Part shown: positions 37,014 through 40,235 of the stretch, piece after piece
Numbering within the stretch: position 1 is the first letter of the stretch
How the letters are laid out: each line of letters starts with the position of its first letter
Assembly: GCF_009931435.1 (NCBI RefSeq)
Contig: NZ_CP043414.1
DNA: 64,000 bases
DNA from: Escherichia coli
GTDB lineage: Bacteria; Pseudomonadota; Gammaproteobacteria; Enterobacterales; Enterobacteriaceae
Strand: one strand, 5' to 3'
Position numbers and translations under genes: made by a program
The notes under the pieces: model-generated
The model's input: only the letters and a program-made list of their open reading frames with translations
Told to the model about the DNA's origin: nothing
Database searches by the model: none

Positions 37014-37271
37014 ATTTATTAACCTTCCAATACCATCCTGAAAAGTATGAACGCGTAAGGGATAACGCGCGAAAAAGTTTACATCTGTCAGAGATTCTTA
37101 ATATTGATGCGGTGAATAGATTAATACACTATTACAACAGAAAATAACCAGCTGATCACACTAATGATGGAAAATATGATGGTGTTAAATGTTGTATTGG
37201 CTGGGGATTTTGATTGCGTACGCAGATCGTAGGCCAGATAAGGCGTATACGCTGCATCAGGTAACAAGGCG

Positions 37272-37306
37272 CGCCAAAAAGCAAAACGCCCGCATATGCG
37301 GGCGTT
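37272..37306 (-). terminator. Rho-independent terminator of uspA
   Basis: Minus-strand hairpin aacgcccgcatatgcgggcgtt followed by ttgcttttt. Confidence 0.65.
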
Positions 37307-37765: not shown

Positions 37766-38155
37766 AGTGTTACTCCTTCCATAAAGTTGTCGATGACTGG
37801 CCAGCTAGCGTTTCTTGTGCCGTTACGTCACCCGCGTCCTGCGAACTACGTGCGCGGGGCTAACCCAGCCGTAAAGATTCAGTGTTAAGACCATCCTTAC
37901 CTTATAGCGACCCGGATGATCCGTCAATCCGCCTTGCTTACCCGTTAGATAAACAAATTTTCGGCATGAATATATTGATAGTGGTTAACCTTCTGGAAAA
38001 AAAACAACCTGATCTCCTACACTATCTATAGAGCCGCTCGGATGTTGGTCACCACAAAAGCGGTTTCTCCAGGACCTGGTGTTAACTGATTGGCAGCGTA
38101 TCGGGAGCGGTAGCCCCGGGGTGGAACTCCGCGGGCAGGTCGCCGGGGAGGAGGT

Positions 38156-38491
38156 ATGATAAGCACCGTCGCATTATTTTGGGCTTTATGTGTCGTTTGC
38201 ATTGTTAACATGGCGCGCTATTTCTCATCACTACGCGCGTTGTTAGTGGTACTGCGTAACTGCGATCCATTGCTCTATCAATATGTTGATGGAGGGGGCT
38301 TTTTTACCTCACATGGCCAACCCAACAAACAGGTGCGTCTCGTTTGGTATATCTATGCCCAACGTTATCGCGATCATCACGATGATGAGTTTATTCGCCG
38401 CTGTGAGCGGGTGCGTCGGCAGTTTATTCTGACCAGCGCATTGTGTGGTCTGGTGGTGGTCAGTCTGATTGCATTGATGATTTGGCATTAA
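38156..38491 (+). CDS. uspB: Universal stress protein B (small inner membrane protein)
   Basis: 111 aa with two TM segments, divergent from uspA. Confidence 0.88.
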
Positions 38492-38565
38492 GCACTTCAG
38501 AAAAAATAACGCATAAAAAAAGCGGGCCAGCAAACTGACCCGCTCGAGACTGATTACAAACGCAA

Positions 38566-38690
38566 AATTGCCTGATGCGCTACGCTTATCAGGCCTACAT
38601 AATCTCTGCAATCTATTGAATTTGCATGTTTTTGTAGGCTGGATAAGGCGTTCACGCCGCATCCGGCATGAACAAAGCGCACTATGTCAA
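38566..38690. repeat. REP/BIME-type extragenic palindromic element
   Basis: gcctgatgcgctacgcttatcaggcctac ... gtaggctggataaggcgttcacgccgcatccggcatg are classic E. coli REP palindromes. Confidence 0.7.
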
Positions 38691-38735
38691 CAATCTGAAG
38701 CGGGCCAGCTGACCCGCTCGTTTTGGTGCGTGCGA

Positions 38736-40235
38736 TTACAGGAACTGCAAGGAGAGCCAGTAAAGCCCGCCGGAAAGCAGTACCGCAGCCGGAAGGGTAA
38801 ACACCCAGGCCATCAGAATACTGGTCACGGTTTTACGCTGTAAGCCGCCGCCATCTACCACCATCGTCCCCGCGACAGAAGAGGAGAGTACGTGGGTAGT
38901 GGAAACCGGCATCCCGGTATAACTCGCCAGGCCGATAGACACTGCCGCAGTCATCTGGGCAGACATCCCCTGAGCGTAGGTCATGCCTTTCTTACCGATT
39001 TTCTCACCGATAGTCGTTGCCACACGACGCCAGCCAATCATCGTACCGATACCTAACGCCAGCGCGACCGCCATGATGATCCACACCGGCGCATACTCGA
39101 TGGTGCTAAGCATGTCGGACTTCAGTTTCTTCAACAGGCGCTGATCGTCTGCACTCACGCCAGGCATCTTCACCACTTTGTCGATAGTGTCAGAAACGCA
39201 CAGCATAATGCGGCGCATCTGGCTACGTTGATCAAGCGACAGCTTGTCGTAGCTTTCCACATCGGTAGTCAACATGCCTTTCAGGCGGTTGAGCGCGTTA
39301 ATGGTATTCGATGGATGGCAATGGAACTCCGCAGGTTGCGTTGCGCCAGCTTCCGGAGCCGGTACTAACTGATCAGCACCGGTAGCCTGTTTCAGCAGCG
39401 CAGGGTGCTGCTCAAAGTAAGCTTCCACGTTGTTGATGGCATCACGGGTACGGGTGATTTCGTAGCCAGTGGCATTCATATTCACCACGAAGCCTGCTGG
39501 CGCGACGCCAATCAGTACCAACATAACCAGACCAATGCCTTTCTGACCATCATTTGCGCCGTGAGAAAACGCCACACCGATAGCGGAAAGGATCAGCGCG
39601 ATACGCGTCCAGAACGGCGGCTTTTTCTTGCCGTCTTTCTTTTCACGCTCCGCTGGGGTCAGGTGGATACGGGCGCGTTTCTTGGTGCCGCTCCAGTAGC
39701 GACGCAGCAAGAAAATCAGACCGCCAGCAAACACCAGGCCGACAATAGGGGAAACGATCAGAGAACCGAAAATACTTAATACTTTCGGGATATTGAGTGC
39801 ATCCACCACTGACGTCCCGGTCATCAACGCATTGGTTAAACCAATCCCGATGATCGCGCCAATCAGCGTATGAGAGCTGGATGCAGGTAAACCAAAGTAC
39901 CAGGTACCCAGGTTCCAGATAATCGCCGCTAATAACATAGAGAACACCATGGCAAGGCCATGAGACGATCCCATATTAAGCAGCAGATCCGTCGGCAGCA
40001 TATGCACAATGGCATAGGCAACACTCAGACCACCCAGCAAAACACCCAGAAAGTTGAACACCGCCGCCATAACCACGGCGAGCTGAGAACGCATCGCGCG
40101 GGTATAGATAACGGTTGCCACGGCGTTGGCTGTGTCATGGAAACCATTGATGGCTTCGTAGAACAGCACAAAAGCCAGTGCAAGCAATAATAACAGCCCG
40201 GTATGCAAATCCAGGCCAGCAAACAAATGTAGCAT
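38736..40235 (-). CDS. pitA: Low-affinity inorganic phosphate transporter PitA
   Basis: 499 aa polytopic transporter with the duplicated GANDGQKG / GxNDxxN Pit motif. Confidence 0.92.

Follow-up and report, generated by a model that had tools for sequence, protein, structure and literature searches.

Two near-identical hairpins bracket a complete BIME-1 element between the convergent genes uspB and pitA of Escherichia coli, and we consider it highly probable that they are two copies of a bidirectional terminator that the genes once shared, which was duplicated and split when BIME-1 inserted. Where the element is absent, in E. coli as in other genera, there is a single hairpin, and the pair therefore has the character of a target-site duplication of the terminator. 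In K-12, the mRNAs of uspB and pitA each end at the hairpin copy on the far side of the element. The uspB-pitA locus itself is ordinary biology. The interesting part is the wider pattern, in which entire hairpins are duplicated at BIME-1 insertions, and this may be a clue to how these repeats move.

Two hairpin copies around a BIME-1 element

The DNA analysed here (the window) is a stretch of 64 kb from E. coli. The coding sequences of uspB (38156-38491, plus strand) and pitA (38736-40235, minus strand), identified from their open reading frames and from the annotation of matching E. coli genomes, converge on a gap of 244 bp. An initial annotation of this DNA had described two near-identical hairpins flanking a REP/BIME element in the gap, with a T-run after the second. 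The description was accurate, with positions within 2 nt of ours. Copy 1 (the left duplicate, 38521-38546; located by repeat search, terminator scan and folding) is a 26-nt repeat, AGCGGGCCAG-CAAA-CTGACCCGCTCG, in which the parts of the hairpin are AGCGGGCCAG-CAAA-CTGACCCGCT-CG. Copy 2 (the right duplicate, 38699-38720; located by repeat search, alignment and folding) is a 22-nt repeat, AGCGGGCCAG-CTGACCCGCTCG, with the parts AGCGGGCCAG-CTGACCCGCT-CG and the 4-nt loop lost. All 22 aligned positions are identical, including a C/A mismatch and an unpaired CTCG tail, and the 4-nt loop is the sole difference. Each copy is an inverted repeat with 10-nt arms that are 90% complementary, with one C/A mismatch on the plus strand. 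The motif GCGGGCCAGC-N(0-6)-TGACCCGC has exactly two matches in the 64-kb window (38522-38543 and 38700-38717), against 0.00 expected from shuffled sequences.

The two copies have different flanks. Directly 5' of copy 1 on the plus strand is a run of seven A residues (38515-38521), overlooked by the initial annotation, which is a U7 tail on the pitA-sense strand. Directly 3' of copy 2 is CG+TTTT, with the T4 tract of a uspB-sense terminator at 38721-38724 (plus strand). Both tracts were assigned by the terminator scan and by transcript ends transferred by homology (see below). On the minus strand, the scan picked out copy 1 (11 pairs, U7); on the plus strand, it picked out copy 2. A promoter scan gave no sigma-70-like sites in the region, and we rejected promoter elements as an account of the hairpins on these grounds.

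Judged on its sequence, the segment between the copies (38547-38698, plus strand, 152 bp) is a complete BIME-1; its limits are those of full-length paralogues and of the segment that is precisely absent from short alleles. It consists of an imperfect terminal inverted repeat with a flank motif (38547-38569), a Z1-type REP (38570-38598), the L linker (38599-38633), a Y-type REP (38634-38667), and a further flank motif with the other terminal inverted repeat (38668-38698). The type names Y and Z1 follow the usage of the BIME literature. BIME-1 is defined by Y and Z1 REPs with an L linker (PMC3333891); at uspB-pitA there is one copy, its REP arms are inverted and its linker aligns with those of the paralogues. 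These paralogues, of which those at entD-fepA and mog-satP are examples, are present in all E. coli genomes; they are about 91% identical over the full length, and the similarity extends about 20-30 nt beyond the REPs on each side. Over its whole length, the element is about 70% self-complementary. It has imperfect terminal inverted repeats of the MITE type, 16 nt long, T[G/C]AGA[C/T]TG[A/T]TGACAAA, with 13 of 16 positions matching when the consensus ends are counted by eye on an alignment of the element with its own reverse complement. We dropped the idea that the orientation of BIME-1 follows the direction of replication; going by map positions, two loci agree with it and one does not.

Two Rfam families match the BIME itself, and we rejected them as an explanation of the flanking hairpins: ES036/CssrF on the L linker (38591-38631, minus strand; 42 bits, above the gathering score of 37.6) and naRNA4 on the Y REP (below threshold). 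Matches to the L20 leader, suhB and other families were below threshold and were taken as chance. Since the ES036/CssrF model matches a repeated BIME-1 linker, the family appears to be derived from BIME-1 rather than to represent a unique sRNA gene. The linker also contains a one-mismatch match to the IHF consensus WATCARNNNNTTR (38609-38621, minus strand), one of 166 such matches in the window, and the consensus is too unspecific to single out a site. Two more REP-like sequences lie in the window, at about 37229-37272 and 52197-52278, with 75-77% identity to parts of BIME-1.

The empty site and the age of the insertion

Amongst complete E. coli genomes with a match, 1939 of 5425 (about 36%) have the long allele. 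The other alleles (about 64%) do not have the BIME, and all 18 of those sampled are 174-175 bp shorter. In the alignment, the short allele reads AAAAAAAGCGGGCCAGTAAACTGACCCGCTCGTTTTGG, in which copy 1 runs straight into the flank of copy 2, and the long allele equals the short allele plus BIME-1 and a second hairpin copy. The short allele has one hairpin (...CATAAAAAAAGCGGGCCAGTAAACTGACCCGCTCGTTTTGGTGCG...) between an A-run to the left and a T-run to the right, in the form A7-GCGGGCCAG-loop-CTGACCCGC-T-run, from which copy 1 differs by a C/T variant in the loop. This is the arrangement of a target duplication: host direct repeats abut both ends of the element and are present in a single copy at the empty site. 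The initial annotation missed both the duplication and the polymorphism of the site, and 'minor structural observation', as it called the pair, undersells the locus.

For the outgroups we used UspB as an anchor and one genome per species, which gave 80 species loci and 58 distinct sequences. The gap has a single hairpin, A(6-9)-[G/A]CGGG[C/T]CAG-TTTC-CTG[A/G]CCCG[C/T]-T-rich, in about 60 enterobacterial species, including Salmonella, Citrobacter, Klebsiella, Kluyvera, Lelliottia, Trabulsiella, Kosakonia and Pluralibacter; none of the 58 distinct sequences has a BIME-1 in the gap. In an alignment of 28 Enterobacteriaceae sequences, 93% of cells are paired. The basal pair is GC in 16 sequences and AU in 12, a compensatory change, and the internal C/A position also occurs as U-A, C-G and U.G. 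From these comparisons, a single hairpin is the deep ancestral state at uspB-pitA. An A-tract 5' and a T-tract 3' of one hairpin, the anatomy of a bidirectional terminator, is found in the empty allele and in the outgroups and in neither of the window copies.

Independent REP insertions lie downstream of the conserved hairpin, which is unduplicated, in Citrobacter, S. arizonae and other Enterobacteriaceae (L012, L013, L015, L024, L028 and L040). REPs of different families have therefore settled repeatedly at this one intergenic position, and duplication of the hairpin is not a general consequence of a REP landing nearby.

The single hairpin at empty sites bears directly on other accounts of the pair. 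It is very improbable that uspB and pitA had independent terminators between which the BIME landed, the similarity being due to convergence or gene conversion. Each copy does serve as the terminator of one gene, but convergence or conversion would have to account for an identity that extends to the mismatch and the CTCG tail; moreover, the empty alleles and the outgroup species have exactly one hairpin with both tracts, and the same flank duplication is seen at other BIME-1 sites with unrelated hairpin sequences. We give even less credence to the idea that the hairpins are terminal repeats that travel with the mobile element. Like such repeats, they lie exactly against its two ends, but the hairpins at BIME-1 paralogues are locus-specific and each matches its own empty site, the uspB-pitA hairpin sequence occurs only twice in the window, and one hairpin copy remains where the BIME is absent. 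We also considered whether the whole insert, including hairpin 2, was copied from a donor locus, and rejected this as the paralogous BIME-1 copies carry other hairpins.

Under the preferred reading, duplication of a shared terminator, the locus would have started with one intrinsic terminator common to uspB and pitA, with an A-run and a T-run on either side that gave a hairpin and U-tract in both directions. The 152-bp BIME-1 would then have inserted at the 3' foot of the terminator hairpin, with the whole hairpin (26 bp) being duplicated to give A7-hairpin 1, BIME-1 and hairpin 2-T4 in that order. One bidirectional terminator would have become two one-way terminators, each on the far side of the BIME for its gene.

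The insertion appears to be single and old. E. albertii (L006) and one further Escherichia lineage (L009) have BIME-1 with two hairpins, and the uspB-pitA elements of E. albertii and E. coli have private linker variants in common, A[T/C]AATCTCTGCAAT, with about 7% divergence (our own count). Given this age, a later precise deletion could have produced the short allele of E. coli, which would then not be the untouched ancestral state. Alternatively, the short allele may be the uninterrupted ancestral allele, either kept segregating or re-imported. That the long allele is original in Escherichia and the short alleles arose by precise deletion, through slippage or recombination between the 22-26-bp direct repeats, is quite possible, although we lean against it. 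In its favour, besides the presence of the same old insertion in E. albertii and L009, the flank haplotypes CAGCAAAAAT and CAGCAATAAT are each found with both the long and the short allele, and it is established that direct repeats this long and 150 bp apart are good substrates for deletion. Against it, the hairpin is single and the BIME missing in four further Escherichia lineages and in all of the other genera, and crossovers in the left half of the repeats should have left a single loopless hairpin, which was not seen: when a synthetic loopless allele was used as the query, every single-piece match among the alleles sampled spans 267 bp and not 263 bp. The lack of a single loopless hairpin in this sample weakly favours an ancestral short allele. 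A deletion would alter the direction of the polymorphism within E. coli; the pair would still originate from a target duplication, earlier in the genus.

The orientation of the loop does not polarise the event, since the loop has evidently been inverted or lost repeatedly. Other genera have TTTC, and Escherichia has TAAA or AAAA, with CAAA in copy 1 of the window (38531-38534). In copy 2 it is TTTA in E. albertii, the exact reverse complement of TAAA, and it is deleted in E. coli.

Transcript ends at the two hairpin copies

The initial annotation had proposed RNA folding and 3'-end mapping as checks. In the pitA sense, copy 1 folds into an 11-bp stem (-19.6 kcal/mol) with U7 directly behind it. 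The stem has no unpaired position in this sense because the C/A mismatch of the plus strand is a G.U pair on the minus strand. In the uspB sense, copy 2 folds with -11.8 kcal/mol as a 6-bp stem with a mismatch, a 2-nt spacer and four U's. The order of hairpins and tracts differs with the direction of reading. A uspB transcript meets copy 1 followed by CUCGAGAC, which has no U-tract, and then copy 2 followed by CGUUUU. A pitA transcript meets copy 2 followed by UUCAGAUU, again with no U-tract, and then copy 1 followed by U7. As copy 1 has kept the A-run and copy 2 the T-run, each gene should terminate at its far copy.

Published 3' ends agree with this expectation. K-12 has the long allele with the same two copies, and the region is 98% identical to the window, so we transferred the K-12 ends to the window by homology (via L212); the data are those of K-12 and not of the window strain. 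In the Term-seq data of Adams et al. 2021 (PMC7815308, Supplementary file 1), there is a strong 3' end at MG1655 3639154 (minus strand) with scores of 130524 and 25150. This corresponds to window position 38723, the third T of the TTTT after copy 2, and is the 3' end of uspB. The same list has no other minus-strand 3' end between the uspB leader and pitA, and copy 2 therefore looks like the main uspB terminator. The suggestion in the initial annotation that copy 2 could terminate uspB read-through was thus right as to the gene and the place, but a backstop is not what the data point to. For pitA, the SMRT-Cappable-seq data of Yan et al. 2018 (PMC6131387, Supplementary Data 1) list a transcript at 3637611-3639360 (forward) with 11 reads ending there. 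The end at MG1655 3639360 (plus strand) corresponds to window position 38516, the sixth U after copy 1; it is an end seen in 11 long reads of one study and is not called in the Term-seq list (PMC7815308). The initial annotation had also suggested that copy 2 might act bidirectionally. This does not fit a copy that has no U-tract in the pitA sense, nor a pitA end that lies in the U7 after copy 1; the bidirectional form belongs solely to the ancestral hairpin before it was divided.

Both copies thus look like intrinsic terminators, with a GC-rich RNA hairpin, a 3' U-tract (the weaker one at copy 2) and a mapped end within the U-tract. The K-12 data list no 3' end at the near copy for either uspB or pitA, and the TERMITe supplements have no entry for the uspB-pitA locus. 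We would picture the uspB transcript running past copy 1 and across the BIME to stop at copy 2, and the pitA transcript running past copy 2 and across the BIME to stop at copy 1. Both mRNAs would have gained a 3' UTR about 175 nt longer, with the REP pair included, which may alter the expression of uspB and pitA. With ends at 38516 and 38723, the two mRNAs overlap by 208 nt, including both hairpins and BIME-1. In strains with the short allele, the two mRNAs would share the single hairpin only.

Termination at copy 2 is probably incomplete, given its weak hairpin and a Rho-dependent termination region further on, at MG1655 3638792 (minus strand), antisense within pitA and about 360 nt beyond copy 2 (PMC7815308, Supplementary file 2). 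The location of this region within pitA is consistent with it halting uspB-sense read-through of copy 2. Because the copies are palindromic duplicates, cross-pairing between them is also possible: the 5' half of copy 1 is predicted to pair with the 3' half of copy 2, enclosing the BIME in one long stem.

A separate 3' end was noted upstream, in the uspB leader (window positions of about 38094-38153). It is very strong, lies at MG1655 3639733 (minus strand), 13 nt upstream of the start codon (PMC7815308, Supplementary files 1 and 3), and falls in an extremely GC-rich and structured sequence, GGGAGCGGTAGCCCCGGGGTGGAACTCCGCGGGCAGGTCGCCGGGGAGGAG. An attenuator, or a small RNA made from the 5' UTR, could account for it.

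Hairpin duplication at other BIME-1 sites

We compared filled and empty alleles at five sites (uspB-pitA, mog-satP, metE-ysgA, yjbR-uvrA and narP-ccmH), and the empty site has one hairpin in five out of five. At mog-satP, also between convergent genes, the filled allele (467 genomes) reads AAAAAAATCCCCCCAAGCGGGGGGATC, BIME-1, TCCCTTCGAGCGGGGGGAGC..., and the empty allele, which is 170 bp shorter, reads AAAAAAATCCCCCCGAGCGGGGGGATC-TCAAAAC. The single hairpins of the other empty sites are AAACCGGGTGGTAATACCACCCGGTCTTTTCTC (metE-ysgA), AAGGCCGCTCTGAAAGCGGCCTTAACG (yjbR-uvrA) and AGCCCGATGGCATCACCATCGGGCCTCTTTTT (narP-ccmH, where the filled allele is found in 1504 genomes). The filled yjbR-uvrA allele (89 E. 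coli genomes; L200:2193-2540) has two tandem BIME-1 copies in the order hairpin, BIME-1, hairpin, BIME-1, hairpin, which would follow either from a repeated hit on the same target or from unequal exchange between hairpin copies. The duplicated segment is the whole stem-loop in all five pairs. Its length is 26, about 20, about 20, about 20 and about 24 bp (18-26 bp overall) and tracks the hairpin; the duplications do not have the one fixed length of the transposase type. This suggests that the length is set by structure and not by a fixed stagger.

A wider sample was obtained by searching metagenome contigs with a BIME-1-internal pattern, which gave 120 loci at 16 distinct genomic sites. The 45 nt to the left of the element was aligned with the 45 nt to the right, with 240 mismatched left/right pairs as controls. 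Eight of the 16 independent sites scored 12-25, whilst the control maximum was 11 (mean 6.0), and a ninth site (yacH/lpd) scored 10. In all nine, the flank alignment begins 0-2 nt from the element on both sides. Each flanking repeat is a locus-specific GC-rich hairpin, with A-rich sequence before copy 1 and usually T-rich sequence after copy 2. Most of the genes beside these elements form convergent pairs: metE/ysgA, PBP4B/Dyp peroxidase, narP/ccmH, yjbR/uvrA, lpd and mgtA, the last named from its protein tail. No clear flank duplication was found in this alignment at the remaining 7 of 16 sites; at some of them a hairpin stands on just one side, and at entD-fepA there is no hairpin. These sites include ones that resemble cueO-gcd, rhlE and glpD, going by the flanking protein tails. 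Consequently, either the rule is not universal or the copies decay.

We tentatively propose, as a reading that stands close to evenly balanced, that BIME-1 behaves like a MITE: it would insert at the 3' foot of an intrinsic-terminator hairpin and duplicate that hairpin in full, with a structure-defined length of 18-26 bp. In the route we prefer, the hairpin or cruciform would be extruded and each strand nicked once, at opposite feet; the element would then be joined in and the gaps filled. Such a geometry would make the duplication equal to the palindrome. The cleaving enzyme could be a hairpin-recognising HUH nuclease, with the REP-associated transposase as the obvious candidate, or a host nuclease. 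What the REP-associated enzyme recognises is a hairpin in single-stranded DNA, which it cuts at the foot (PMC3333891), and the hairpin of a terminator could mimic such a substrate; the known relatives of this enzyme make no target duplication (PMC3333891).

That last property is one reason to weigh a replication or repair accident at fork-stalling hairpins, in which a template switch copies BIME-1 and then re-copies the hairpin with no element-specific nuclease being involved. We think this unlikely, though by no means negligible. It would account for a duplication whose length follows the hairpin (18-26 bp) in place of a fixed stagger, the IS200/IS605-type transposition proposed for REPs makes no target duplication (PMC3333891), and the tandem BIME-1 copies and three hairpins of yjbR-uvrA are producible by unequal exchange or repeated copying. 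However, the junctions are sharp and the element has the same ends (T[G/C]AGA...TCTGA) at every site, which is more like defined cleavage, and microhomology between the hairpins and the element ends is not evident.

To our knowledge, the spread of REP/BIME elements has been an open question for about 40 years, and the transposase proposed for them is not known to move them in vivo. We found no description of the whole-hairpin insertion signature in the accessible literature; papers from the 1990s may mention flanking repeats. A reproducible signature of defined ends, a hairpin target and duplication of the whole hairpin offers a concrete, testable model of REP/BIME movement. The association of REPs with terminators also takes on a different meaning. 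If BIME-1 does target terminators, this would explain why REPs are concentrated between convergent genes and inside 'bidirectional terminators', and each insertion would create two distal one-way terminators and overlapping antisense 3' UTRs that contain REPs. Both uspB-pitA alleles occur naturally, in about 36% and 64% of complete E. coli genomes. What sets them apart is about 175 nt of 3' UTR and the 208-nt antisense overlap, and they form a natural experiment on the effect of BIME-1 on mRNA stability or convergent interference.

The locus has the features of several known systems without matching any of them fully. Like bidirectional intrinsic terminators, the short allele and all outgroups show one hairpin with an A-tract and a T-tract; in the window, in contrast, this unit is split, and each copy has one tract, works in one direction and lies on the far side of a 152-bp insert. 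In a 2026 preprint (10.64898/2026.03.23.713779), convergent genes flank about 60% of REPs and predicted bidirectional terminators contain 78 of them, and REPs are read as terminators or mRNA stabilisers in 3' UTRs. Our results suggest instead that BIME-1 inserts into pre-existing terminators, and that at uspB-pitA it is the duplicated host hairpins, and not the REPs, that mark the mapped 3' ends.

As with other BIME-1 (RIP/RIB) elements, whose presence or absence among strains has been reported (PMC1187871), the 152-bp insert is extragenic, lies between convergent genes and is present in some strains and absent from others. REP/BIME elements have been described as having neither MITE signatures nor target duplications, with their route of insertion unknown (PMC3184786, PMC3333891), whereas here we see terminal inverted repeats and a long duplication of the target hairpin. 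BIME-1 resembles MITEs such as ERIC/IRU and Correia in its small size, its terminal inverted repeats, the target repeats that abut it and its filled and empty sites among strains, but the duplications made by MITEs are short, of a fixed 2-10 bp set by a DDE transposase, and those at BIME-1 are 18-26 bp and correspond to the target hairpin. Finally, REP hairpins resemble the subterminal hairpins of IS200/IS605, whose single-strand type of transposition is the one proposed for the REP-associated tyrosine transposases (RAYT/TnpA-REP). IS200/IS605-type transposition makes no target duplication, however, and to obtain the one seen here both strands would have to be cut, each at a different foot of the hairpin, unless another mechanism is at work.
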